Virus record (IMG/VR): IMGVR_UViG_3300047090_000179
Coordinates: 1 to 30,303 of that record
DNA: 30,303 bases
Origin: a virus
Taxonomy: Duplodnaviria > Caudoviricetes
Direction: 5' to 3' (one strand)
A program made the translations under genes and the position numbers. Position 1 is the stretch's first letter; every line of letters begins with the position of its first letter. The notes beneath the pieces are model-generated. The model had not been told where the DNA came from and ran no database searches. It worked only from the letters and a program-made list of their open reading frames with translations. Positions 7,095-19,710 of the stretch are shown piece after piece.

Positions 7095-7639
7095 TTCCCG
7101 CTACGCCCTTGCCAAGTACATGCGCTTTCTGCGGCGAAGAAATAAGCAATCCCGATCTAATAGCGATGTGCGAATCGCAGAAGCGGCCACTTTCGCACAC
7201 ACCTTGCTACGAAGCAAACCTAGAGAAAGAGATAAAGGGTAAGATAATACTCACGCAGGAGCACCTGGACTACCTTAACCGAAACATACTTAACCAGAGA
7301 CTACCTTTCAAGATCGAACTGGAAGTGTTGTATCCGCTGTTACGCTCTTTGCAGCAAACCGCTGCCAATGTTTCGATTGCCATAAGCAGGCAAAAGGACG
7401 AATTGAAAATTGGAGCAGTCAAGGAATACAGAGAGCGGCAAGAGTACAAAAAAGAGATTGACAAAGAAGCAGTACGGATAGAAGAGGAACGGAAAGCAGT
7501 ACTAGCGGCGGAACGCGCGGACCCTCTCTTAAAACTAAAAAGAAAAGCAATAGAGGGTTTCATGAAGTTACCTGGAATGACAAGAGAAATGGCAGAAGCG
7601 CAAGTTAAGAAAATGATGGAAGGAAACAAACCGCAATGA
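7091..7639 (+). CDS. Hypothetical protein with N-terminal Zn site and coiled coil
   Basis: CAFC...HTPC; charged helical C-terminus; ATGA overlaps. Confidence 0.8.
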   Translation: MIPATPLPSTCAFCGEEISNPDLIAMCESQKRPLSHTPCYEANLEKEIKGKIILTQEHLDYLNRNILNQRLPFKIELEVLYPLLRSLQQTAANVSIAISRQKDELKIGAVKEYRERQEYKKEIDKEAVRIEEERKAVLAAERADPLLKLKRKAIEGFMKLPGMTREMAEAQVKKMMEGNKPQ

Positions 7640-7794
7640 AACACAAGCTACCTAAGACCAAAAAGGAACAAGAGAAGGCTATTGCTAATGCTGCTGTAGC
7701 ATTGGCGAAATACCTAAAATGTACAGTACCAAAGGCAAAGAAGTTTGTATTAGATGGAATGGAAAAGTATGGCATTCCACTAATTAAGAATTGA
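7636..7794 (+). CDS. Basic hypothetical protein, 52 aa (not in ORF track)
   Basis: MKHKLPKTKKEQEKAIANAAVALAKYL...; ATGA overlap; fills the gap. Confidence 0.65.
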   Translation: MKHKLPKTKKEQEKAIANAAVALAKYLKCTVPKAKKFVLDGMEKYGIPLIKN

Positions 7795-7805
7795 GGAACA
7801 CAGCA

Positions 7806-7994
7806 ATGACTGGATTCGCAGAGTGTACAAAGTGTGATAAATGGTCTAGTATTCCCAAGGAATTTAAAGAGACACTACATTTCGTACAGTGTCCAGTATG
7901 TAAAAGTGCTATGTTTCTTGTACGCGGTGTAGATCCTAAAGAAGTAGCATTAAGACCTGAAAATATGGTAGTTGCAGGAATAATGAAACAATGA
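7806..7994 (+). CDS. Zinc-ribbon protein
   Basis: CTKC...CPVC; GAGGA RBS before ATG 7806. Confidence 0.7.
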   Translation: MTGFAECTKCDKWSSIPKEFKETLHFVQCPVCKSAMFLVRGVDPKEVALRPENMVVAGIMKQ

Positions 7995-9718
7995 GACTCC
8001 TCCGCCCATGTCCGCTTTGCAGTAAAACTCTAGAGTTACGCGAAAGCGTCTCTCTAGGTGCTGAGACTCTCAACATCTACAAGTGCGGTCATTCGTTTGT
8101 AGAAGAAAAAGCCGCTGTCGCGTATGCCGATGTGGAGTTTTCTTGTGTGAACGGTAGCGGTAAGTCCGCCCGTGAGTATCAGAAAGATGGGGTTTTAGCC
8201 GCACTGGAAGCAGAGGGAAACTTCATAAACGGAGATCAAATGCGTTTGGGTAAAACTCCACAAGGTTTACTCACGTGGCGCTACCTAAGAAAGAAAGGCA
8301 AGAAAAAATGCCTTATAGTTGTTCGCGCTGCAAACTTGTGGCAATGGATACGCGAATACAAAACGTGGGCTGACCTTTCGATGTTCGGTATCTACCCGAT
8401 TGTGGGTACGAAGAGTTTTATCCCGCCCGGTTTTGGCGCTTACATCATTTCGATGGACACGTTCGGAAGAAACGGTATGTCCGACCGATTGTTGAAAGAA
8501 GGATTTGACCACTGTATTGTAGATGAGGCACACTCTTTTAAGAACGTAGACGCACAACGTACACAAGCTCTCATAGCCTTTCTGAAAGAGGTAAACAAAG
8601 CGGAAATAACACACGAGATTAAGTTCCAGTGTGCAATGTGTAAGAACGAGTGGACCGAAACTGTGACTGTGACAATAGACACTAGCGACAATGTACAGCG
8701 CGTTCACAAAAGATCTTTCTGTAAGAACTGTGACGCCGTAGTAACACAAACTCAAGCTGCTCATGTGAAAGTAACCCGTAAGTGCTCTGTCAATATGTTA
8801 AGTGGTACTTCGATAAAGAATCGTGCTGATGAGCTTTTCGTACCACTTAACATTCTTGCACCTGACAAAGTAACAAGCATCTCTCAGTTTCGCCGCTCTT
8901 GGCTTGAGCAGGACGAAAAAGGCAAGTGGTCCCGAATTAACAGACACCGATATGATCAGTTTAAGGAGTTTCTTAAACCTTACTTTCTGCGGCGTGAGAA
9001 AGAAGACGTGTACACAGACTTACCGGAAATTAACCGAACATACACAATTGTAGAGATCGAGAGTGGAGAACTAAAAGACCTGTACAATCGTACACTTGAT
9101 CTTCTGGAAGTCAAGATGTCCCGCTCCGACTTTCGTATCTTCGATAGTATTGGTGATCTTATGACTTTACGTCGAATATGTGGTATTGCAAAGTGCAAGT
9201 TTGCGAAAGCCTACGCCGAGGAGCTTTTGGAAGACAGCGACAATGCGAAACTAGCTATTGGCATACATCATCATAGTGTGAGAGACGCGCTTGCAATGCA
9301 ATTACAGAGTTTCGGAACGATGCGCTTATCAGGTGAAGATTCTCCGGAACGTAAAGATCAGATAATGACAAGTTTCGAGCACGCACCAGAAAAAATTCTC
9401 ATTATCAATATGCTTGCAGGCGGAGTAGGAATGGATTTTCACTATGTGAACAATGTGCTAATCTTAGAACGACAGTGGTCGGCAGCGGACGAGGAACAAT
9501 TTGAGTTTCGCTTCTACAATCCTGACAAGTCGATAAAGAACGTCAGTACGAATGTTGAGTATGCAATCGCTAAAGACACTGTAGATGAGTTTTTCCATGA
9601 TCTTGTGGAAGAGAAGCGAGTGATCTTTGGCGAAACATTGGGAACTAACTGGAATCTTCAAAGTGACCAAGAGAGTTTCCGCTCGTTGCTTGAGAAAACT
9701 GTAAGGGGGCGCTTGTAA
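7991..9718 (+). CDS. SNF2-family (SF2) helicase/translocase
   Basis: REYQ, GDQMRLGKT, QWIRE, IVDEAH, LSGT, LRREKEDV, AGGVGMDF, QWSAADEEQ. Confidence 0.93.
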   Translation: MRLLRPCPLCSKTLELRESVSLGAETLNIYKCGHSFVEEKAAVAYADVEFSCVNGSGKSAREYQKDGVLAALEAEGNFINGDQMRLGKTPQGLLTWRYLRKKGKKKCLIVVRAANLWQWIREYKTWADLSMFGIYPIVGTKSFIPPGFGAYIISMDTFGRNGMSDRLLKEGFDHCIVDEAHSFKNVDAQRTQALIAFLKEVNKAEITHEIKFQCAMCKNEWTETVTVTIDTSDNVQRVHKRSFCKNCDAVVTQTQAAHVKVTRKCSVNMLSGTSIKNRADELFVPLNILAPDKVTSISQFRRSWLEQDEKGKWSRINRHRYDQFKEFLKPYFLRREKEDVYTDLPEINRTYTIVEIESGELKDLYNRTLDLLEVKMSRSDFRIFDSIGDLMTLRRICGIAKCKFAKAYAEELLEDSDNAKLAIGIHHHSVRDALAMQLQSFGTMRLSGEDSPERKDQIMTSFEHAPEKILIINMLAGGVGMDFHYVNNVLILERQWSAADEEQFEFRFYNPDKSIKNVSTNVEYAIAKDTVDEFFHDLVEEKRVIFGETLGTNWNLQSDQESFRSLLEKTVRGRL

Positions 9719-9939
9719 TGGAAAAAAGACTTTTCAATTGGGAAAGTTGGGATGATATTGATATTTTGGACTTCCAATATCATAACTGTACTTTAAACAT
9801 ACCTATTGGTCCTTACGCTGCTGGATCGAGAATTGACGTAATTTTCCTTTCTTATGAAAGAGGGGAAATGAACTTTTATAAAAATGGAGCAAAAGATCCA
9901 ATCCTTAAGTTTAAACTTCAGTTAGAGGTAACTTTGTGA
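9718..9939 (+). CDS. Hypothetical protein, 73 aa
   Basis: TAATG and GTGA overlaps; AT-rich. Confidence 0.7.
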   Translation: MEKRLFNWESWDDIDILDFQYHNCTLNIPIGPYAAGSRIDVIFLSYERGEMNFYKNGAKDPILKFKLQLEVTL

Positions 9940-10217
9940 AAACCTTCGACGAAGCTTTGAAGAAAGTTTTGCCATCACGAAATATGGAAGATATTGACAG
10001 GTTTGGATCTCTATATGGAAATAACATATATGAGGATCTATTACAATGTGACTTCTTGACGGAAGTGCTATGTGAAAGTTTGGCATTTGCAATTGCGAAA
10101 GGAAGCCTACACGAATTAACTTGCTTAGTAAAAAGTAGTTTTTGCCTTGGAGTCGCCATTGGCATCGAAATGGAGAAAGAGGAACTATGTGACAATCAAT
10201 CCGAACCCAAGGCGTAG
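9936..10217 (+). CDS. Hypothetical protein, 93 aa
   Basis: GAGG RBS, GTG start overlapping the upstream stop. Confidence 0.7.
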   Translation: MKTFDEALKKVLPSRNMEDIDRFGSLYGNNIYEDLLQCDFLTEVLCESLAFAIAKGSLHELTCLVKSSFCLGVAIGIEMEKEELCDNQSEPKA

Positions 10218-10557
10218 CACGTCCGGTACAAACTGGTGTGTGCCTTACGCTCTAGCGGTACTTATGGATAAGACAGTTGACGAATGTACAGAACTACTGA
10301 AAGAGAAGCTAGGGGATCAGCCGATAGCGGGAATCTACTTTCCGCTCGCCCTGCGAATACTGGAAGAAAATGGATACAGCTACAAAGAAGCAAAAGCTAT
10401 AAAATATGGAAGGGTTTTCTTCATTGTCATTCCAATGCATGTAGTTGTATGCAGCAATAGCTACGTCTATGACAACGGACCTTACAAGGGAAAGACTTTT
10501 GAAGACCTTCGCAAAGTGTGGCATTGTTTTGAGATAACGAAGGAGGAGAAGAAGTGA
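10189..10557 (+). CDS. Papain/C39-like fold protein (putative Cys-His-Asp triad)
   Basis: NWCVPYALAVL...MHVVV...YVYDNG; start revised to GTG 10189 after AGAGGA. Confidence 0.55.
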   Translation: MTINPNPRRSTSGTNWCVPYALAVLMDKTVDECTELLKEKLGDQPIAGIYFPLALRILEENGYSYKEAKAIKYGRVFFIVIPMHVVVCSNSYVYDNGPYKGKTFEDLRKVWHCFEITKEEKK

Positions 10558-10709
10558 AATACAAAATAATGACGTCATATACGCTAATCAATAAAAAACA
10601 ACTAGAAAAATTAGCTATTGAAGGATGGGAACTAATAGCTATAGTAAGTAGAGATGTTTTAGATCCTTACCATTTTTACTTTAAGAAAATATTTCCAGTA
10701 TCACTTTAA
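10554..10709 (+). CDS. DUF4177-like small protein, 51 aa (not in ORF track)
   Basis: MKYKI...QLEKLAIEGWELIAI...FYFKK; AGGAGG RBS. Confidence 0.7.
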   Translation: MKYKIMTSYTLINKKQLEKLAIEGWELIAIVSRDVLDPYHFYFKKIFPVSL

Positions 10710-10715
10710 ACCCCC

Positions 10716-11585
10716 ATGCCCCAAAAAGTAATTATTCTCGATTCTTCTCAAATCTCTACATGGCTAGATTGTCCATGTAAATGGGATTTGTCTTACCGCC
10801 AGCGTCTCACTCACTCTAATAAAGTAGAAGAGGCACTTTCCGCCGGCACCCTTATGCACAAGTTGATAGAGCTATTTCACACAAATGGCAACAGTGTACA
10901 AAAAGCTCTTGACTTCAAAATGCCAGAAGGATTTCCGCTAACAGATAAAACTGCCGCCGATGTGCGAAAGCGTTTCCAAGAGTATGTACTCTTTTGGATG
11001 GCACAAGGACAAAGCTATGTGATTGCCACAAGACCACGTTATGCAGTGAAGATAGAGAACAGTCTCCCGGTCGATTTTTATGAACAGGAGCTTTTGGTAG
11101 AACAGGGATTTTCGTTCCACCTCTATGAAGACAAAGACTACCTGTTTGTGCTAGAGGGCCGTATTGACGCAATTGTAGAAATGAGTGGTAACAAGTTCTG
11201 GGTAGACCACAAATTGCAATTCCGGGAGCGGGAACTTTACAAGAAGTCTATACAATTTCGTAATTACGCTCTTGCCACAGGGTTTTCTCTGGGTATGATA
11301 GACTACATAAGGATGCAAAAAGAGATTGGACCCAAGACTTTTATACGACAGGTTATCTCTTTCAATGCTTATGAGCAGAGAATGTGGAAAATCGAGCTAA
11401 TTAACATTTTCAAAGATATTGCAGATAGTGGAATAGCTCCGCCAATGCAAAGGTGGAACTCCTGTGATGGTAAGTTTGGCTACCCTTGCGAGTTTGTAAG
11501 CTTGTGTGAAGAGTGGAACCCGCAGACAAAACTAGCGATTGTGCAAAGAGATTTTGTTAAAAGAGAGGAGTGGAAACCGTGGTAG
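10716..11585 (+). CDS. PD-(D/E)XK (Cas4/RecB-like) exonuclease
   Basis: SSQISTWLDCPCKW, GTLMH, VEQ, GRID, VDHK, QFRNY and C-terminal C...PCEFVSLC (four Cys, Fe-S staple pattern). Confidence 0.9.
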   Translation: MPQKVIILDSSQISTWLDCPCKWDLSYRQRLTHSNKVEEALSAGTLMHKLIELFHTNGNSVQKALDFKMPEGFPLTDKTAADVRKRFQEYVLFWMAQGQSYVIATRPRYAVKIENSLPVDFYEQELLVEQGFSFHLYEDKDYLFVLEGRIDAIVEMSGNKFWVDHKLQFRERELYKKSIQFRNYALATGFSLGMIDYIRMQKEIGPKTFIRQVISFNAYEQRMWKIELINIFKDIADSGIAPPMQRWNSCDGKFGYPCEFVSLCEEWNPQTKLAIVQRDFVKREEWKPW

Positions 11586-11911
11586 AAACCAAAGAATGGG
11601 AATTTGTTCCCACAGGAATGGGTAATTTTCTTCTTTTTTCCAACGATGAGGATTTATATGTTTCCTATAACCCTGATACAGGTAAAAGTGCCATTGGAAT
11701 TTTTTGTAACGATCTTATTAAAAGTCTTTCTGGCAAAGAATATTCCGAAGGGCAGGAGACTTGTTTAGCGTCTTTAGGAAAAAGATATATTTTAAAGGGA
11801 GATTTTAGAGAGGAGTACTTAGCTATTTGGCCGGATAGATTAAAAGCGATGGAAATTTATCAAGCCAACAAGGAACAATTACGTTCAGATTGGTCAGAAG
11901 ACGAAGAATGA
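11570..11911 (+). CDS. Hypothetical protein, 113 aa
   Basis: Open frame contiguous with neighbours; start uncertain. Confidence 0.7.
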   Translation: METVVETKEWEFVPTGMGNFLLFSNDEDLYVSYNPDTGKSAIGIFCNDLIKSLSGKEYSEGQETCLASLGKRYILKGDFREEYLAIWPDRLKAMEIYQANKEQLRSDWSEDEE

Positions 11912-12108
11912 CCCGCACCCACACTCGCGAACCATACGCTCCTGAGCATCCCCGCTCCGGGTATTTCCTAATGAGAGATTCCCCGGCAGGCAAGTGTATA
12001 CTAATGTGTTCAGAAGAAAAAGCTACAGTATTCGCAGTACTAGCGCAATATGAAGCCGCCGGCGTGGTTTGTTGGGTAGAAGATTTGAGAGGAGAGAAGG
12101 TGTCGTGA
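11908..12108 (+). CDS. Hypothetical protein
   Basis: ATGA overlap (MTRTHTREP...). Confidence 0.65.
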   Translation: MTRTHTREPYAPEHPRSGYFLMRDSPAGKCILMCSEEKATVFAVLAQYEAAGVVCWVEDLRGEKVS

Positions 12109-12359
12109 ACTTACACATTTGTGAATTATTTAATCAAAAATATTTTGTGGTAGACACCAATGGATATCCACAAGCATTAGATGAAAACAGTGGTGGGTAT
12201 AACTACACTGCTCGGGGAACAGAAGTAAAATTTTGGATTAAAAAAGAAGATGCTTTAAAATACTTGGCTGTTGTAAATTGGAAAGAAGAAAAATTATTTC
12301 TTTGTCAAGTAACAGATATTTTAGCAATTCAATTGGTAGGTTCTGATGCCCGCTCTTAA
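12105..12359 (+). CDS. Hypothetical protein
   Basis: GTGA overlap, purine-rich RBS. Confidence 0.65.
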   Translation: MNLHICELFNQKYFVVDTNGYPQALDENSGGYNYTARGTEVKFWIKKEDALKYLAVVNWKEEKLFLCQVTDILAIQLVGSDARS

Positions 12360-12615
12360 CCACGTTCACATTTACGTTCGCCGCCGAGGTACACAAACCT
12401 ACGGTTGTGATGACCCTGACTGTACAACAAAGGTACCAAAGGAAGAACTTGTGGGAAAACGAACACGGTGCGGTGTTTGTAAAACTAACGAGTTTGTGCT
12501 TACACGAGCGGACCTTCGGTTAACAAGACCAAGATGCCCGCAATGCTCACAAAGAGCAGATCACAAAGAAACGAGAGAGAAAAAGAGACTTTTGGAAGAG
12601 ATGGGGATAGGATGA
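12346..12615 (+). CDS. Multi-Zn-finger protein, 89 aa
   Basis: HVH...CDDPDC...CGVC...CPQC. Confidence 0.8.
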   Translation: MPALNHVHIYVRRRGTQTYGCDDPDCTTKVPKEELVGKRTRCGVCKTNEFVLTRADLRLTRPRCPQCSQRADHKETREKKRLLEEMGIG

Positions 12616-12616
12616 A

Positions 12617-12790
12617 ATGAGAACAAAATGCCCTTGGTGTAAACAAATTGTTGATGTAGAATTGATGCACGATCCTCCTATAGAGACACGATACTCATTA
12701 GTTAAACATAAACTGGATCAAAAAGAGTTCCTTTTGTGCGACGGATCGTTTCAAGAAGTTGCAATTATAGTTGAAAGTATAAAGATATGA
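12617..12790 (+). CDS. Small Zn-binding protein, 57 aa (not in ORF track)
   Basis: MRTKCPWCKQ...KH...CDGS. Confidence 0.65.
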   Translation: MRTKCPWCKQIVDVELMHDPPIETRYSLVKHKLDQKEFLLCDGSFQEVAIIVESIKI

Positions 12791-12975
12791 AAATCTCCTT
12801 CAACTTCGACCACCATCGCCGCGCAATTACGCTAGAGCCAGAAAACGAGCTAGAAACAGCCATTCTAGCAGAAATGGAAGCAGGCTCGGCGAAAGGAACA
12901 ACCATCGAGATCAAAAGCGTAAAGACGGACGCGAGCGGAACTTTTGAGATTGTGATGAGGATGAATGGAAAGTGA
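12787..12975 (+). CDS. Hypothetical protein, 62 aa
   Basis: ATGA overlap; resembles the next ORF. Confidence 0.75.
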   Translation: MKISFNFDHHRRAITLEPENELETAILAEMEAGSAKGTTIEIKSVKTDASGTFEIVMRMNGK

Positions 12976-13005
12976 AAAAAGAATTTATTTGTTGGGGAGA
13001 TTGAG

Positions 13006-13185
13006 ATGAAAGTAACAATGTCACCAGACAGAAAATATATGACTTTGGAAGCGGAGAATAGTGTAGAAGAGTTTTATTTTGAAAATATGCGACTTCCAAT
13101 AAAAGCAGAAATTGATTGGACTGGCACTAGCTTTAATGGCGAGAATCAGTTTGGTATAAAGGTGACTTGTGCCCAAAGCCTCTGA
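13006..13185 (+). CDS. Hypothetical protein, 59 aa (not in ORF track)
   Basis: GGGGAG RBS; MKVTMSPDRKYMTLEAENSVEE resembles 12787..12975. Confidence 0.65.
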   Translation: MKVTMSPDRKYMTLEAENSVEEFYFENMRLPIKAEIDWTGTSFNGENQFGIKVTCAQSL

Positions 13186-13957
13186 CCTTTCTCCCGACTC
13201 CCGTTTTGTCGCTCTTTTTGTAGGCCGCAGCGGAAGTGGTAAAACTGTAGCTGAAGCCTCTTTTCCTAAACCCATAGAGTTTATGGATTTTGATGGACGT
13301 ATAAGAGGTTTGCTTGGAGCGCCTTGGATTGACCGCTCGGAAATCACGTATACCTACTATCCGCCAAAGATGGACGGCTTGATACCTGCATTAAATAAGA
13401 AACTAGAAGGAATGATGACAATGGCGAGCGTAGGGCAACCGCTCCCGAAAACCTTTGTCACGGATTCTATAACCAATCAGAATTACGCTTTCATTTGCCA
13501 AAGTATTGGGCTTACACACACAGGTAGTAATAAAGCTGGGGACAAAAAAGGTCGTTTTATTGGACCTATTGCAATGGCCGGCATTGAAGACTACGGCTTA
13601 GAGGCACAAGCGGCTTACGATTATATGGCTTTTATGAAGTCGTTGCCTTTCCAAAATATAATTGTGAGTGCCCATTACATAGACAGATTTGGTAAAGATC
13701 CCGCTAGTGACAGCGAATACGCTCCGAGTGTTCTTATCGGTAAGAAACTAAGTATACGAGACAAGATCAGCGAGAATATCCAGACTCACTTCGATCACAT
13801 TTTCGAGTTTGAGCGGAAAGTCGTCAACGGGCACGAGAAATTTTATGTGCTTTTCCGAGGGGACTTGGCACGCACAAGCTACGAGAAACTCCCGGAGGGC
13901 CAAATTGACATCACCGGAAAGAATTTCTATGAAGTTATGATGGGGTATTTGAAATGA
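13169..13957 (+). CDS. AAA_24/Sak4-like P-loop ATPase (RecA-fold recombinase)
   Basis: Walker A GRSGSGKT, MDFDG, Walker B VTDSIT, IVSAH, HFDHIF; lies between exonuclease and SSB. Confidence 0.85.
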   Translation: MPKASDLSPDSRFVALFVGRSGSGKTVAEASFPKPIEFMDFDGRIRGLLGAPWIDRSEITYTYYPPKMDGLIPALNKKLEGMMTMASVGQPLPKTFVTDSITNQNYAFICQSIGLTHTGSNKAGDKKGRFIGPIAMAGIEDYGLEAQAAYDYMAFMKSLPFQNIIVSAHYIDRFGKDPASDSEYAPSVLIGKKLSIRDKISENIQTHFDHIFEFERKVVNGHEKFYVLFRGDLARTSYEKLPEGQIDITGKNFYEVMMGYLK

Positions 13958-14202
13958 AACTCGACTACCACAATTTCGTAACCGAAAAGCAACTTGACTA
14001 TATAGCTACACTTGCAATAGACTGCAATTTCTCACTTGCACAGCGGAAAGCCTTTATTGAAAAAAGAGTAGATAGGACTCTTGAGATTTGGTCAGACATC
14101 TCACGGAACGAAGCTAGTAAGATCATTGGCGAACTTATCGAACTCAAAGAATCCCGTTTTAAAAAAGCTCCTGTTGACACAGGGGATTCCGATCCATACT
14201 AA
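13954..14202 (+). CDS. Small helical protein (TEKQ...EASxxI motif)
   Basis: VTEKQLDYIATL...ISRNEASKIIGEL, a motif common in phage recombination modules. Confidence 0.75.
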   Translation: MKLDYHNFVTEKQLDYIATLAIDCNFSLAQRKAFIEKRVDRTLEIWSDISRNEASKIIGELIELKESRFKKAPVDTGDSDPY

Positions 14203-14221
14203 ACCAAAAGGAAACTCAGAC

Positions 14222-14626
14222 ATGCCAATCATTAAGATAACAGCAGCAGACATCAAACGTGCAGAAGTTGTAGAAGCAAAGTGGTGGGGGGCACAAATCA
14301 CCAAAATTGACCCACCCGAAAAGTCAGCGGCGGGGGATTCCGTCAACATTTGGTACTACTTCACAATCGAAGGCACGGGCGGAAAGGAGATCAGACACAA
14401 TTTTAACTCTAAGGGCTGGATAATGATGCCAGCTTTGGAGGAAAGTGTAAGTGGAAAGAAAGTTACCGCCGAAGAAGGCTCCGCTTTCGAGCTGGACACC
14501 GACTCGCATCTTATGAAAAAGCTGGACGTTCACCTTTATGTGGACAATTACGGAGGGCGACTTTCTAACAAGATCGACAACTTCCTTCCTTATGGAAAGG
14601 GGACCTCGCAAGCGGCGCCCTTTTAG
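14222..14626 (+). CDS. Putative ssDNA-binding protein (DUF669-like OB fold)
   Basis: Start revised to ATG 14222 (AAGGA RBS); beta-rich, YGGRLSNKI, C-terminal PF; Sak4 context. Confidence 0.7.
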   Translation: MPIIKITAADIKRAEVVEAKWWGAQITKIDPPEKSAAGDSVNIWYYFTIEGTGGKEIRHNFNSKGWIMMPALEESVSGKKVTAEEGSAFELDTDSHLMKKLDVHLYVDNYGGRLSNKIDNFLPYGKGTSQAAPF

Positions 14627-15331: not shown

Positions 15332-15558
15332 CCCCAACTAAAAATAGTTTTTTAAGAGATACAGTAGCTTCTCCTCAGGAATGCTACTATTGTGGTAAGA
15401 AAGGAGCATTACACTTTGTAGAAGAATGGGATGCCTTTATTCATGCAGTATGTGTTCCTGCATTTTTACAAACAGATGAGGGAAAAGTAATTATCAAACA
15501 TAAGCACGAAGTCTATATTGATTTTGAATTAGAAGAGTTAGAGGATATAGCACATTGA
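15313..15558 (+). CDS. Zn-binding hypothetical protein, 81 aa
   Basis: CYYC...HAVC; AAGGA RBS. Confidence 0.7.
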   Translation: MPCGGITPTKNSFLRDTVASPQECYYCGKKGALHFVEEWDAFIHAVCVPAFLQTDEGKVIIKHKHEVYIDFELEELEDIAH

Positions 15559-17984
15559 TCTCCGGCCGTGGTCGTTCTTCCGCTCCTGCTATCTTCATTG
15601 CTGATGGTGCGACGGACTACGATGTTTCGTGTGGCTACGCTTTGAGCGGGGACCAGGAAAACAAGTTACGTTCCCTCTGTAAAGGCACACATTTGAAGTT
15701 TGATGAACTTTATGTGACAGCTTTAATAAAAGAGAAGATCAATCTTAAAAAACCTAAGGAGAATCTCCCCCTTTTAAGTGATTCCTACAAAGAGATTCTC
15801 CTTCAGGAGATAAGGACGATACAACCCAATGTCTTGGTACCACTCTCTGAGTTATCGTTTAACTTTCTTACTGATTTGCACGATATTAGGAAATTCCGGG
15901 GTAGTATTTTACCGGCTAATACAAATGTACAAGGTAGTTTTCAACATACTCTTCGGGTCATACCGGCTCTCGGCCCCAATCCGTACTTGTATGAAGATCC
16001 GAAGATGGAGTTTATAACTCTCAATGACTTCTCGAAGATCGCCTCCAACTTAGACAGGCAAGATCCAATACCGGAGATTGGAAAATGTTGGGTAGCAAAA
16101 ACTGCCAGCGAGTTCAGACTCTTTGTAGAAAGATCCTACACGAATGCCACTTTCGTTGTATTTGATATCGAAACTTACGCAAATATTCCCACATGTATTT
16201 CGTTTTGCTTCGATGGTTACGAGTCTTGTTGTGTGCCGATACTCGATTATAAGATACCCGAAGATGATCGTGTTCTCATGTTATATCAAGTGGCTAAACT
16301 TCTTAGTTCGTCGCTACCGAAAGTCAATCAAAACGTAAAATTCGACTGGCGTAAACTCCGCCGGTTTGGCTTTGAAGTTAACAACGTCTCTGGTGACACA
16401 CTTCTAGGAGCTTCGTGCCTTTATGCTGAATTTCCAAAAAATCTGGGATTTCTTACTTCCATATATACTGACATGCCTTACTTCAAGGATGAAGGCAAAG
16501 AATTTGACCCTAGAAGCTATAGCCGTGAAAGATTGTACCTTTATAATGCTAAGGACAGCCTCGCTACCCATCAAGTTTACAGTAAGCAACTTGAAGAACA
16601 CAGAGAACAAGGAACGGAATATGTGTATAATAACCTCATCAGCATTCTCCCAATCTACGCAGCAATGGAAGATAACGGAATCCTTGTTGACGATACCAGG
16701 AGAAAAGATTTACTCGCAAAGTACGAAAGCCTCTACGAAACCTACGTCTACAAGCTCAGACAACTCGTAGGTGAGGAAATCTCTCCTCTCAGCTCTCAGC
16801 GTGTGGGCAAGCTGGTTTACGACGAACTTAAATTTGATGTAATAAAGGGGATAAAGAAAAATGTCTCAGGCACCTATAAGGCCGACGAGGAGTCTCTCGA
16901 ACTTCTCATGTGGATGTCCCGCTGCCAAAGCCCAAGAGAAGGAAAAGAAATCCTCCGAACGATTATTGATTGCCGAAAATTACATAAGGTTATTGAATAC
17001 CTGCGACTTCCACTCTATCCAGATAAGCGCCACAGATGTGAGTTTAACCTTGCAGGCGCTGAAACAGGAAGGACAACGGCTGGAGAAACTACTGATTACT
17101 ACTTGTCTTTTGAAAAAGGCAAAGTAAAGCTCAAAAACATGGGTCACAGCTTCCAAACAATTGGAAAGCACGGTTTTACAGTTGACATGGAGACTTATGG
17201 CAAAGACATACGGTCCATTTTCGTCCCAACACCAGGTTACACGTTTGTTGAAATGGATCTTTCGCAAGCGGAAGCAAGAGTTGATGCCGTTCTTGCACGT
17301 GACTATGATATTCTTCAGGTGTTCGATTCGCCTATCGGTATTCATAGACTTACTGGGTCGTGGGTTTATAGTTGTAAGCCTGAGGAAATAGAGAAGAACA
17401 AACTTGTGCTGAATGAGCAGGGAGTGGGGGAAGAGCGGTATCTAATCGCTAAAACTGCACGTCACGCTTTTGAACGGAACATTCAAGCATTAAAGCTAAT
17501 GTTGATGATTCACAAACCTCTAAAAGAGTGTGAACGTATATTAAAAGTATGTCATGGGCGGCAACCAAACATACGAGCGGAGTTTCACCGTGACGTAGTA
17601 AAAGAAATTGACACAAAACGTCTTCTTGTTGCTCCAAATGGACGACGCCGAGACTTCTTCGGAAGACTCAACGAAGGCACCTACAATGAAGGTATTAGTT
17701 TTTTACCACAAGCGGTGGTAACAGATATCATTAAAGAGGCATTGCCAGCTATATATAGCGCGACAAGCGGGTACACAAGATTTTTAAGTGAGTCTCACGA
17801 TTCCCTCTTTACAGAGGTAAGAGAAGGAAGGGAGATGGAATATGTACAGATAAGCAAGCGTTTGCTTGAACACCCTGTAGACTTTAGGAAATGTTCGCTT
17901 AGTCGTGATTTCGAGCTAACTATTCCTTGTGAAGCATCTTGGTCAAAAACTAATTGGATGGAGATTGAGGATTTGAAGATATGA
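15555..17984 (+). CDS. polA: Family A DNA polymerase with N-terminal UDG-like and 3'-5' exonuclease domains
   Basis: Exo I FDIET, Exo II NQNVKFD, Exo III YNAKD; ETGR; motif A DLSQAEAR; GRRR; PQ; motif C HDS; N-terminal about 165 aa follow the family 4 UDG layout. Confidence 0.95.
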   Translation: MISGRGRSSAPAIFIADGATDYDVSCGYALSGDQENKLRSLCKGTHLKFDELYVTALIKEKINLKKPKENLPLLSDSYKEILLQEIRTIQPNVLVPLSELSFNFLTDLHDIRKFRGSILPANTNVQGSFQHTLRVIPALGPNPYLYEDPKMEFITLNDFSKIASNLDRQDPIPEIGKCWVAKTASEFRLFVERSYTNATFVVFDIETYANIPTCISFCFDGYESCCVPILDYKIPEDDRVLMLYQVAKLLSSSLPKVNQNVKFDWRKLRRFGFEVNNVSGDTLLGASCLYAEFPKNLGFLTSIYTDMPYFKDEGKEFDPRSYSRERLYLYNAKDSLATHQVYSKQLEEHREQGTEYVYNNLISILPIYAAMEDNGILVDDTRRKDLLAKYESLYETYVYKLRQLVGEEISPLSSQRVGKLVYDELKFDVIKGIKKNVSGTYKADEESLELLMWMSRCQSPREGKEILRTIIDCRKLHKVIEYLRLPLYPDKRHRCEFNLAGAETGRTTAGETTDYYLSFEKGKVKLKNMGHSFQTIGKHGFTVDMETYGKDIRSIFVPTPGYTFVEMDLSQAEARVDAVLARDYDILQVFDSPIGIHRLTGSWVYSCKPEEIEKNKLVLNEQGVGEERYLIAKTARHAFERNIQALKLMLMIHKPLKECERILKVCHGRQPNIRAEFHRDVVKEIDTKRLLVAPNGRRRDFFGRLNEGTYNEGISFLPQAVVTDIIKEALPAIYSATSGYTRFLSESHDSLFTEVREGREMEYVQISKRLLEHPVDFRKCSLSRDFELTIPCEASWSKTNWMEIEDLKI

Positions 17985-18502
17985 AAAGAGAAGAACAGAT
18001 GAAGCAAATTAGAGAAACAATAGAGATGGTTAAGATAGAAAACGATAAATTGAGAGTTGAAAACAAACAATTACGAGTTAAACTTAGCTCACTAAAATTT
18101 AACCCTGGTATAGAGCCAAAAGTACCTTCCTACTTTCACAGCGCTATAGACGAATTTTCAGATTATCCTAAAGAAGCTCGCGGGGATACAGTAAAGGTAC
18201 CCTCCGCAGTGGCCACCCGACTTCCCGTGGCCACCCGCTACGATATTTTGGACCCCCAGTTTTGGTATTCCATGGCTTTGTTAGCGGGGGTGGGAGCTAA
18301 AAAGTATGGCGATTTCAATTGGCACAAGTCTCGATTGGTAGGGGAAAAGTCGCCAGTGAATCACGCTTTTCAGCACTTAGTGGATTACCAAGACGGGAAC
18401 TCCTACGACCACACGGAGTTAGGGGGACATAAGAAATTTCACTTGATCGCCTGTGCTTTCAATTGTATGATGGAATTCTTTTACGAGAATAAGAATACCT
18501 AA
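17981..18502 (+). CDS. dATP/dGTP diphosphohydrolase-like (DUF5664) protein with N-terminal coiled coil
   Basis: RYDIL...GAKKYGDFNW...HAFQHL...HLIACAFNCMM. Confidence 0.85.
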   Translation: MKREEQMKQIRETIEMVKIENDKLRVENKQLRVKLSSLKFNPGIEPKVPSYFHSAIDEFSDYPKEARGDTVKVPSAVATRLPVATRYDILDPQFWYSMALLAGVGAKKYGDFNWHKSRLVGEKSPVNHAFQHLVDYQDGNSYDHTELGGHKKFHLIACAFNCMMEFFYENKNT

Positions 18503-18522: not shown

Positions 18523-19710
18523 GTGACGTTTGTGGACTCGTTTCTTGCACACACGAAAGACCGAGAGTCTCCAACTAGCTTCTGGCGGTGGTCTGCCTAT
18601 ACAGCTATAGCGGCGGTAATGAGAGATAATTGTTATCGTCGCTTTGGAGACTCGCGAGTCTATCCTAATATATACACACTCATTCTTGCGGATTCTGCGA
18701 TTCAAAGGAAAGGAGATCCAGTAAAGTTATGTGAGAGAATGGTGAAAGTTGTCAACAACACAAAGCTCATCAGCGGAAGATCCTCAATTCAAGGCATACT
18801 CGATGAATTATCACGAACAGAGACAGACAAAAAGACGGGAACTCCTAAGACTGGCGGCTCTGCCATTTTCGTAGCAACAGAGCTTTCCGCTGGCATAGTA
18901 GGAGATCCAGAGGCAATCAAAATCTTGACTGACATATATGACTACAAAGATGAATATACCTCCCGACTACGCGGCATGGGCACTTTTAGCATTAAGCATA
19001 TTTGTTTTTCTATGCTCGCTGCTAGTAATGAAGAACTTCTACGAGATGTGTATGACGTTAAAGCCCTTTTTGGGGGTTTGCTTGGTAGGACTTTTCTCAT
19101 ACGTCCTAGCGAATTCCGTCCTGGGAATAGTCTTTTCGATATGGAAAATACTGACGAACCGCTCAAAGACCTCGCGGGGAAATTATTAGATATTGCCAAT
19201 CTGCACGGCGAATTTGTCATAGACAATGCAGCAAGAACAGAGTACGACACTTGGTATTTACCTTTTCGTAAGTCTTATCAAAACAAACCCGACAAGAGCG
19301 GAGTGATCGGGCGTATTCATGTAGGGGTCATAAAATTGGCAATGATCTTATGTGTAGATCAGACAAACGCATTGGTAGTGAGAAAGGAGCATATAGTGGA
19401 AGCAATTTCGCATTGCATGGCTTTGCTTCCGAACTATAGTAGTTTTATTATGGTAAGTGGAAAGAGCACCGTGTCTGAAGTCGCAGCACAATTGATCGAA
19501 GACATTTGGAATGGCAAAGGACGCACGATAAGCAAAAGCGACTTTTTGGCAAGACACTTTTATCAATTTGACCTAGAGATTGTGGACAAGTGTGTGATTA
19601 CGCTTGAACAGGCGGGTCTGTTGAAGACCACAATGGCAGGGGGAACGGAACTTGGCTATCAAGTGACGGAGAAGTGTAAGGATGTTTTTAAATTGAAGGA
19701 GGAGAAGTGA
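18523..19710 (+). CDS. DUF3987-like AAA+ helicase with C-terminal winged helix
   Basis: ESPTSFWRWSA, YPNIYTLIL, Walker A-like ADSAIQRKG, TELS, LTDIYD, GGLLGR, HVGVIKLAMIL. Confidence 0.8.
   Translation: MTFVDSFLAHTKDRESPTSFWRWSAYTAIAAVMRDNCYRRFGDSRVYPNIYTLILADSAIQRKGDPVKLCERMVKVVNNTKLISGRSSIQGILDELSRTETDKKTGTPKTGGSAIFVATELSAGIVGDPEAIKILTDIYDYKDEYTSRLRGMGTFSIKHICFSMLAASNEELLRDVYDVKALFGGLLGRTFLIRPSEFRPGNSLFDMENTDEPLKDLAGKLLDIANLHGEFVIDNAARTEYDTWYLPFRKSYQNKPDKSGVIGRIHVGVIKLAMILCVDQTNALVVRKEHIVEAISHCMALLPNYSSFIMVSGKSTVSEVAAQLIEDIWNGKGRTISKSDFLARHFYQFDLEIVDKCVITLEQAGLLKTTMAGGTELGYQVTEKCKDVFKLKEEK

Follow-up and report, generated by a model that had tools for sequence, protein, structure and literature searches.

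Motif B, the O helix of family A DNA polymerases, carries two residues that are regarded as textbook, near-immutable features of these enzymes, Arg754 and Tyr766 in Escherichia coli Pol I numbering (PMC4215692; PMC3715850; these and other papers are cited here from excerpts). In Taq polymerase, Arg659 (equivalent to Arg754) and Lys663 bind the triphosphate, and both have been described as likely immutable (PMC4215692). In the open state Tyr766 stacks against the terminal template base, and in the closed state it hydrogen-bonds with Glu710; its replacement by alanine yields a mutator, and side-chain size and shape outweigh the hydrogen bond (PMC3715850). At the nearby position 762, typing studies give Phe, Tyr or Leu (PMC6302109; PMC9069017; 10.64898/2026.05.20.726624). 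Here we analyze a polymerase gene (polA) in IMG/VR record IMGVR_UViG_3300047090_000179, a 30,303-nucleotide stretch of tailed-phage DNA (the window), in which motif B departs from this pattern at both residues. The rewrite is real, clade-wide and partly convergent: more than 130 distinct proteins of the clade lack both Arg754 and Tyr766, states in between are found in relatives, and separate lineages share the same Glu-Arg pair at positions 765-766.

The polymerase and its rewritten motif B

The gene encodes a protein of 809 aa in which Pfam recognizes a 3'-5' exonuclease (aa 200-344) and DNA_pol_A (aa 389-776), preceded by a region matching TIGR00758, a model for domains like the uracil-DNA glycosylases (UDGs) of family 4 (aa 2-166); the protein also matches phrog_17. 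An AlphaFold model (114-sequence alignment, mean predicted local distance difference test score of 93) matches the Pol I-type structure 8oo6 with a Z score of 31.0 and a root-mean-square deviation of 3.6 over 567 aligned residues. By fold and catalytic residues the protein is a family A DNA polymerase, with the Klenow-type exonuclease and the palm, fingers and thumb of that family, but the Arg at B1 (754) and the Tyr or Phe at B4 (766) that belong to a canonical motif B are absent. The gene maps of six complete clade genomes (41-43 kb) show no other polymerase. The features of the gene are as follows.

15555..17984, + strand: family A DNA polymerase, 809 aa, with UDG-like, 3'-5' exonuclease and polymerase regions (Pfam, phrog_17, TIGR00758)
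15558..16052, + strand: UDG-like domain with degenerate catalytic motifs (Asp17, Ala56 and Gly140 at the Glu, Asn and His positions)
16152..16586, + strand: 3'-5' exonuclease with D204, E206, D264, Y330 and D334 intact
17256..17285, + strand: motif A, DLSQAEARVD, with catalytic D568, steric-gate E573 and clade-specific D577
17337..17345, + strand: helix N, GIH, with H597 (H734) retained and G595, which covaries with Y629, in place of Asp732
17403..17435, + strand: predicted beta-hairpin immediately before the O helix (DSSP on the model, strands at 617-619 and 625-627)
17436..17480, + strand: motif B, the O helix, RYLIAKTARHAFERN, aa 628-642 (homologue alignment)
17685..17711, + strand: motif 6, helix Q, NEGISFLPQ, with N711 (R841), I714, S715 (N845) and Q719 (Q849)
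17796..17804, + strand: motif C, HDS, with catalytic D749 retained; the E883 position is S, G or A throughout the family

The register of motif B was set by HMMER alignments with Klenow, which pair D568 with D705, E573 with E710, H597 with H734, K633 with K758 and Q719 with Q849, as well as D577 with M714, G595 with D732, N711 with R841 and S715 with N845. The original prediction, made from the DNA letters alone, had anchored its numbering on K633 as K758, and these alignments confirm that choice. Within motif B, Y629, K633, R636, H637, E640, R641 and N642 thus occupy positions 754, 758, 761, 762, 765, 766 and 767. In the AlphaFold model, residues 628-640 are helical and follow a hairpin that spans 617-627.

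The rewrite proposed in the original prediction is conserved. A homologue search returned 353 matches at E<=1e-20, and in the best 120 of these, comprising 119 non-self proteins, Y629, K633, R636, H637, E640 and R641 were present in 119 of 119 and N642 in 118. The pattern KxxRHAxER, whose conservation had been put forward as a check, holds among these homologues. Two contigs from other sequencing runs (X4 record 8 and X6 record 10) cover the motif with no listed difference, while differing from the window at about 42 other places in 985 bases. Five different codons encode R641 across 16 loci. Between the window and the locus L001, the polymerase genes show 139 synonymous and 11 non-synonymous codon differences, the latter all within aa 75-199, and the gene is under purifying selection.

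The catalytic machinery is likewise preserved. Each of the five exonuclease residues listed above is found in 133 of 133 proteins of the Arg766 group, as are D568, E573, D749, R506 (the Arg of TGR) and H597, in agreement with the earlier view that the exonuclease motifs are intact and, together with the purifying selection, that the gene is not decaying. Motifs A and C, also described as intact, do keep their catalytic residues; they are non-canonical in other respects, with Y706L, M714D and E883S/G. The UDG-like domain is another matter: a full Glu/Asn/His set was found in none of 128 scorable clade members versus 105 of 176 Tyr/Phe766 relatives, and judging from these motifs the domain is likely inactive.

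Layers of the rewrite across the family

To place these changes, a protein pool was assembled from the close homologues, 150 representatives of a profile search and the polymerases of the collected loci. Short, very long and more than 90% identical sequences were dropped, leaving 297 proteins and later 411; the pool is enriched for the window's clade and for the neighbourhood of one protein, P0238, so that the counts given here do not equal natural frequencies. Trees built without the motif columns recovered the window's clade as monophyletic (support 88).

Three layers can be distinguished. The first is family-wide: Arg761 occurs in 391 and His762 in 393 of 411 proteins, usually alongside Arg754 and Asn-Tyr at 765-766, and His762 is also present in the named phages Desulfofustis LS06-2018-MD01 and Microcystis Mel-JY34. 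The Arg and His assigned earlier to positions 761 and 762 were read correctly, but they are no special mark of the window's enzyme. In the second layer, Asp732 is missing from 151 of 151 Tyr754 proteins and present in 144 of 146 others, an association in which six of six independent pairs agree (p=0.031). The Arg754Tyr change was placed in the parent group on the trees, and this step is separable from Tyr766Arg because 19 proteins carry Tyr754 without Arg766. The third layer is the Glu-Arg pair itself: Glu765 and Arg766 are strictly paired in 140 of 140 cases among the 411 proteins, and neither occurs alone.

Additional residues accompany this third layer in the window's clade. Asp577, at the M714 position, is found in 131 of 132 clade members, 131 of 133 of all Arg766 proteins and none of 164 others, and its gain maps to one change on the tree. 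Asn711, Ile714 and Ser715 accompany Glu-Arg in the clade as well; Asn711 is present in 130 of 133 Arg766 proteins, where 153 of 164 others have Lys or Arg, and Ser715 in 133 of 133. Covariation analysis by mutual information with average product correction placed both Y629-G595 and D577-R641 among the top long-range pairs, with D577 as the top covarying partner of position 640 and the second of 641. The original prediction had left E640, D577, G595, N711 and S715 out of its account. Its reading of Tyr at position 754 is borne out by 132 of 133 Arg766 proteins, and its impression that Arg at 766 is unusual is supported. Arg641 itself is invariant in the homologues, whereas the Asn that had been paired with it at 767 belongs to a variable position (N/D/G).

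The Arg one residue before Tyr629, Arg628, had also been pointed out. It is no conserved substitute for Arg754, being present in 108 of 133 proteins with Glu, Gln or Lys in basal members; as a shifted Arg754 in the window's clade it was rejected, as it is mostly missing from those basal members and the partner Asp732 is gone. The idea of a shifted Arg754 does hold for 20 relatives (P0137, P0144, P0156 and 17 others) that have Arg five residues before the Lys758 equivalent and keep Asp732, which suggests that their O helix begins in a shifted register.

Position 766 is labile in the family, with Tyr, Leu, Arg, Phe and Asn all observed and Arg accepted only with Glu765. At 765-766 the states among the 411 proteins include Asn-Tyr (141), Glu-Arg (140), His-Leu (66) and Asn-Leu (20). 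The His-Leu proteins form a large His762 group (L136, L142, L143, P0277-P0382) and represent a second natural loss of Tyr766; most have Arg, Gln or His at position 720, adjoining Q849. At position 762, Tyr (RYLxQY) was found in 6 and Asn in 12 of the 411, the latter often with Pro in motif A (EPRI); examples of these 762 variants are P0191, P0210, P0224, P0261 and P0267; P0200, P0205 and P0211. In one locus (L016:9989-12350) the polymerase gene lies in two frames while it is whole in the near-identical L012, probably owing to an assembly error.

Repeated origin of the Glu-Arg pair

The Glu-Arg pair is present in at least two lineages besides the window's clade, each of which keeps Arg754. A DNA pattern for Arg754 plus RHAGER gave 11 matches in IMG/VR, of which 7 are polymerases and 4 were dropped for lack of a match to the polymerase profile. 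The 7 polymerases retain Arg754 and Asp732, are without Asp577 and are nested within the His-Leu766 group. P0238 and three homologues (73-77% identity) constitute another Arg754-keeping Glu-Arg set, whose UDG motifs are intact in those members that have the domain. Scanning IMG/VR for the motif gave 17 contigs, all of them already among the collected sequences.

A single origin of the pair was rejected by the approximately unbiased (AU) test, both for the window's clade and the second Glu-Arg lineage as one clade (p=1e-82) and for the second lineage and P0238 as one clade (p=0.001). On a 164-row FastTree phylogeny, Glu-Arg requires 5 changes, at least 4 of them forced by the starred branches, and some may be reversions. 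The origins outside the window's clade fall inside the His-Leu766 group (85 rows, support 95). One second-lineage phage encodes, upstream of polA, a hairpin protein of the Acb2/Tad1 type and a protein with a cold-shock domain (L155:7955-8371 and L155:6856-7125).

A probable compensated replicase and competing readings

With modest confidence, we favour the view that the polymerase is a compensated proofreading replicase that uses ordinary A, C, G and T deoxynucleoside triphosphates (dNTPs), its O-helix pocket having been rebuilt in steps. Structural compensation is suggested because the substitutions have clear partner changes. His762 together with Arg761, shared by the whole family, would represent the first step. 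In the second, which falls in the parent group, joint loss of Arg754 and of Asp732, with which it covaries, would have given Tyr629 and Gly595, with Tyr629 filling the space vacated by Asp732 and triphosphate binding passing to Lys633, His597 and probably Arg636 or His637. The third, in the window's clade, would be the replacement of Tyr766 by Arg641 with Glu640 beside it. From the Tyr766 site, Arg641 may form salt bridges with the steric-gate Glu573 and with Asp577, which lies one turn along helix 572-580, a network that would replace the Tyr766-Glu710 contact. Arg641 could also stack on the template base by a cation-pi contact, and it may restore the template-side charge lost with Arg841Asn, as a charge swap; Glu640 would balance the charge of Arg636 or Arg641.

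Several points weigh against this view. For Taq, Arg659 has been called likely immutable, and only conservative change is said to be tolerated at Tyr671 (PMC4215692). The D577-R641 link has a single origin, and any clade-specific residue would covary alike; moreover, because the other Glu-Arg lineages lack Asp577 and the clade member P0057 has Cys there, Asp577 is unnecessary for Arg766. The repeated origin of Glu-Arg points to selection, which pure compensation leaves unexplained, and both the salt bridges and the activity are deduced from the sequence and a predicted fold.

In the main competing reading, possible though on balance unlikely, Glu765-Arg766 is instead an adaptive change in the checking of the nascent base pair, altering the error spectrum, the rule at lesions or abasic sites, or strand displacement, still on ordinary dNTPs. 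A guanidinium would then stand at the site from which tyrosine ordinarily mimics or blocks the template base. The strict pairing of the two residues, the AU rejections and the separate origins within the His-Leu766 group all speak for it, as do the control of fidelity by Tyr766 (PMC3715850), the mimicry of a missing base by Taq Tyr671 at abasic sites (10.1101/2025.03.26.645540) and the concurrent loss of Arg841 in the window's clade. Such a phenotype is, however, read from residues, and the pair follows neither the state of the UDG (intact in 4 of 7 versus 0 of 128) nor any neighbouring gene; its repeated gain could also mean that few stable solutions exist once Tyr766 is lost, with reversions among the counted changes.

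A bolder version, which we hold to be doubtful, treats the Glu-Arg pair, gained repeatedly in His762 phage polymerases, as a new nucleotide-selection device in which Arg would serve as gate and stand-in template base, dispensing with Arg754 and Tyr766. Opposite abasic or modified template sites, these replicases would then insert nucleotides by another rule, in analogy with Rev1, where an arginine acts as the template.

Genome context, base modification and priming

The remaining alternatives depend on the surrounding genes. In the 30.3 kb window, a terminase lies at the left end, the + strand holds a replication module and the - strand the virion genes. Of 19 listed runs, the 8 that contain at least half of the gene's sampled words are soil or rhizosphere metagenomes, and no RNA run was among those listed; a scan of genome contigs yielded only four loci, all of them weak or fragmentary, and no host. 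The relevant neighbours of polA are as follows.

7991..14626, + strand: replication/recombination module with SNF2 helicase, PD-(D/E)XK exonuclease, Zn-finger protein, Sak4-like ATPase and a putative single-stranded DNA-binding (SSB)-like protein, the last so labelled by inference and with no family match
17981..18502, + strand: DUF5664 (PF18909) dNTP pyrophosphohydrolase-like gene (Pfam), patchy in the clade
18523..19710, + strand: DUF3987 helicase-like protein with no recognized primase domain, common to the canonical-motif sisters

The same replication module occurs in the window's clade, in the intermediates and in the canonical-motif sisters. Between its exonuclease and Sak4 genes lies a small Cys/His-rich Zn-finger gene (12346-12615) without a Pfam match, which was seen in 35 of 54 loci, and a stand-alone DUF3987 helicase-like protein stands directly after polA in the clade and in canonical sisters (G011-G015). 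Of 23 sister loci, 14 have a fusion of ParB with an N6/N4 methyltransferase upstream of polA (L049:4838-6211); none of the 20 clade loci has it. Pfam scans covered 95 of 97 representative open reading frames (ORFs) near clade polA genes (two inside truncated polA genes were left out) and 69 from the six complete genomes, the older minus-strand clusters being represented by the window's copies only. Among these 95 and 69 representatives, no base-synthesis enzyme, primase or integrase was detected, nor any queuosine-pathway, hydroxymethylase or TET-type family.

These scans bear on a proposal of the original prediction that we now consider improbable, namely that the pocket is adapted to modified DNA, either on the substrate side (dZTP, a 7-deazaguanine or a modified pyrimidine) or in the template. 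DUF5664 follows polA in the window and is commoner beside Glu-Arg polymerases than beside their Tyr766 sisters. Z phages have such an enzyme, which hydrolyses dATP, dUTP and dGTP (PMC12884076). The gene is found after polA in 3 of the 6 complete clade genomes, in 2 of the 3 near-complete genomes of the second lineage and in few others, yet it is missing from the other three complete genomes and is also reported from phages with canonical genomes (PMC12884076). In addition, none of 10 near-complete genomes (8 from the window's clade, 2 from the second Glu-Arg lineage) had PurZ, ThyA (PF00303) was found in 0 of 5 genomes and in none of the Pfam-scanned representatives, and the DpoZ models scored 43.4 bits where the cut-off is 500 and 14.5 bits where it is 350.

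Degenerate UDG motifs in all 128 scorable clade members would fit a modified genome, as would the GT2-like glycosyltransferase and class I S-adenosylmethionine (SAM) methyltransferase present in all six complete clade genomes, three of which have a second GT2 copy. The latter pair, however, sits beyond the window in an apparent head operon before the adaptor gene (L088:7723-8430 and 7194-7850; G003, G004, G006, G007 and G008), and possibly serves virion glycosylation. Six-base palindromes in the six genomes have an observed/expected ratio of 0.82, versus 1.00 for other words, with 8 of 64 below 0.25 (CTCGAG, 2 observed versus 27 expected; GGATCC, 8 versus 67). This avoidance, which would indicate DNA open to restriction, is similar in canonical sisters, and a Dam methylase adjoins one second-lineage Glu-Arg polymerase. 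Ties between the rewrite and three of these features were considered and rejected: with UDG inactivation, which is not general (4 of the 7 scorable Glu-Arg proteins that keep Arg754 have an intact UDG); with DUF5664, for its patchy distribution; and with GT2/methyltransferase, of which the methyltransferase, the sole probe used, occurs in G019 (Arg754/Tyr766) and is missing from G017 (Tyr754).

Even less probable is the suggestion that the polymerase doubles as a primase, initiating de novo like CCPol-MP with the extra Arg binding the initiating triphosphate. The lack of a Pfam primase among the clade ORF representatives, the DUF3987 protein without a recognized primase domain and the small conserved Zn-finger gene in the module agree with such a role. 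But five canonical sister phages with Arg754/Tyr766 and the same module also gave no match to Prim-Pol or Toprim primases, so that the missing primase is unlinked to the motif; the exonuclease domain is whole, unlike that of CCPol (PMC10201439), and priming could be left to a host primase or to recombination (Sak4, exonuclease). That the motif reflects misalignment, gene decay, a frameshift or a sequencing error can be dismissed: low identity to solved polymerases (about 20%) is all that speaks for it, whereas the motif is invariant in the examined homologues and identical in contigs from other runs, selection is purifying, and the register is fixed by flanking motifs and intermediates.

Implications

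The family offers a natural series of enzymes (Asn-Tyr, His-Leu and Glu-Arg, with or without Arg754) for probing fidelity, sugar selection and lesion bypass, and it may yield polymerases with unusual nucleotide tolerance. A subtler effect on fidelity or lesion handling may accompany the rewrite. The typing of family A polymerases by Phe, Tyr or Leu at position 762 is extended by a large His762 group. A literature search, mainly of papers outside subscription journals, returned no account of the motif, of His762/Arg766 enzymes or of the Arg754-Asp732 contact.

Comparison with known polymerases

The window's enzyme probably works in the manner of a Pol I-type phage replicase; by its residues and domains it does not match the N4-like, SPO1/SP15-like, DpoZ or CCPol types. 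Like E. coli Pol I Klenow, Taq and Bst polymerases (PolA cluster #1, PMC10201439), it has the Klenow fold, the exonuclease motifs and the equivalents of D705, E710, H734, K758, Q849, D882 and R668. Unlike them, it carries a UDG-like domain at its N terminus and no 5'-3' exonuclease, and at about 20% identity it differs by R754Y, D732G, N761R, F762H, I765E, Y766R, M714D, R841N, N845S and E883S. DpoZ (clusters #18 and #19) is likewise a phage PolA altered at B4 (766), in some cases with DUF5664 nearby, but has Phe at B4 together with PurZ, where the window's enzyme has Arg and its near-complete relatives have no PurZ. In CCPol-MP the exonuclease is shortened (PMC10201439), whereas here it is whole and has its catalytic residues.

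Among polymerases with a UDG-like domain, the N4-like UDG-PolAs (cluster #17, PMC10201439) have Phe at B3 where the window's enzyme has His637, and no N4-like phage was among 20 tblastn records. The UDG-PolAs of SPO1/SP-10 and SP15-like phages share the order UDG-exonuclease-polymerase (PMC13697223), and SP-10 gives a weak tblastn match over aa 2-394. Those phages have an active UDG and T-modified genomes, with large inserts in the SP15-like enzymes (PMC13697223), in contrast to the degenerate UDG motifs and 809 aa of the window's enzyme and the absence of a ThyA homologue from the five genomes searched. Cultured phages reach only about 23% identity to the window's polymerase. The UDG-PolAs of Desulfofustis LS06-2018-MD01 and Microcystis Mel-JY34, at about that level, have in common with it His762, the gene order nuclease-ATPase-polA-DUF3987 and genomes of about 44 kb, but Arg754, Asp732 and Asn-Tyr at 765-766 are retained in both.

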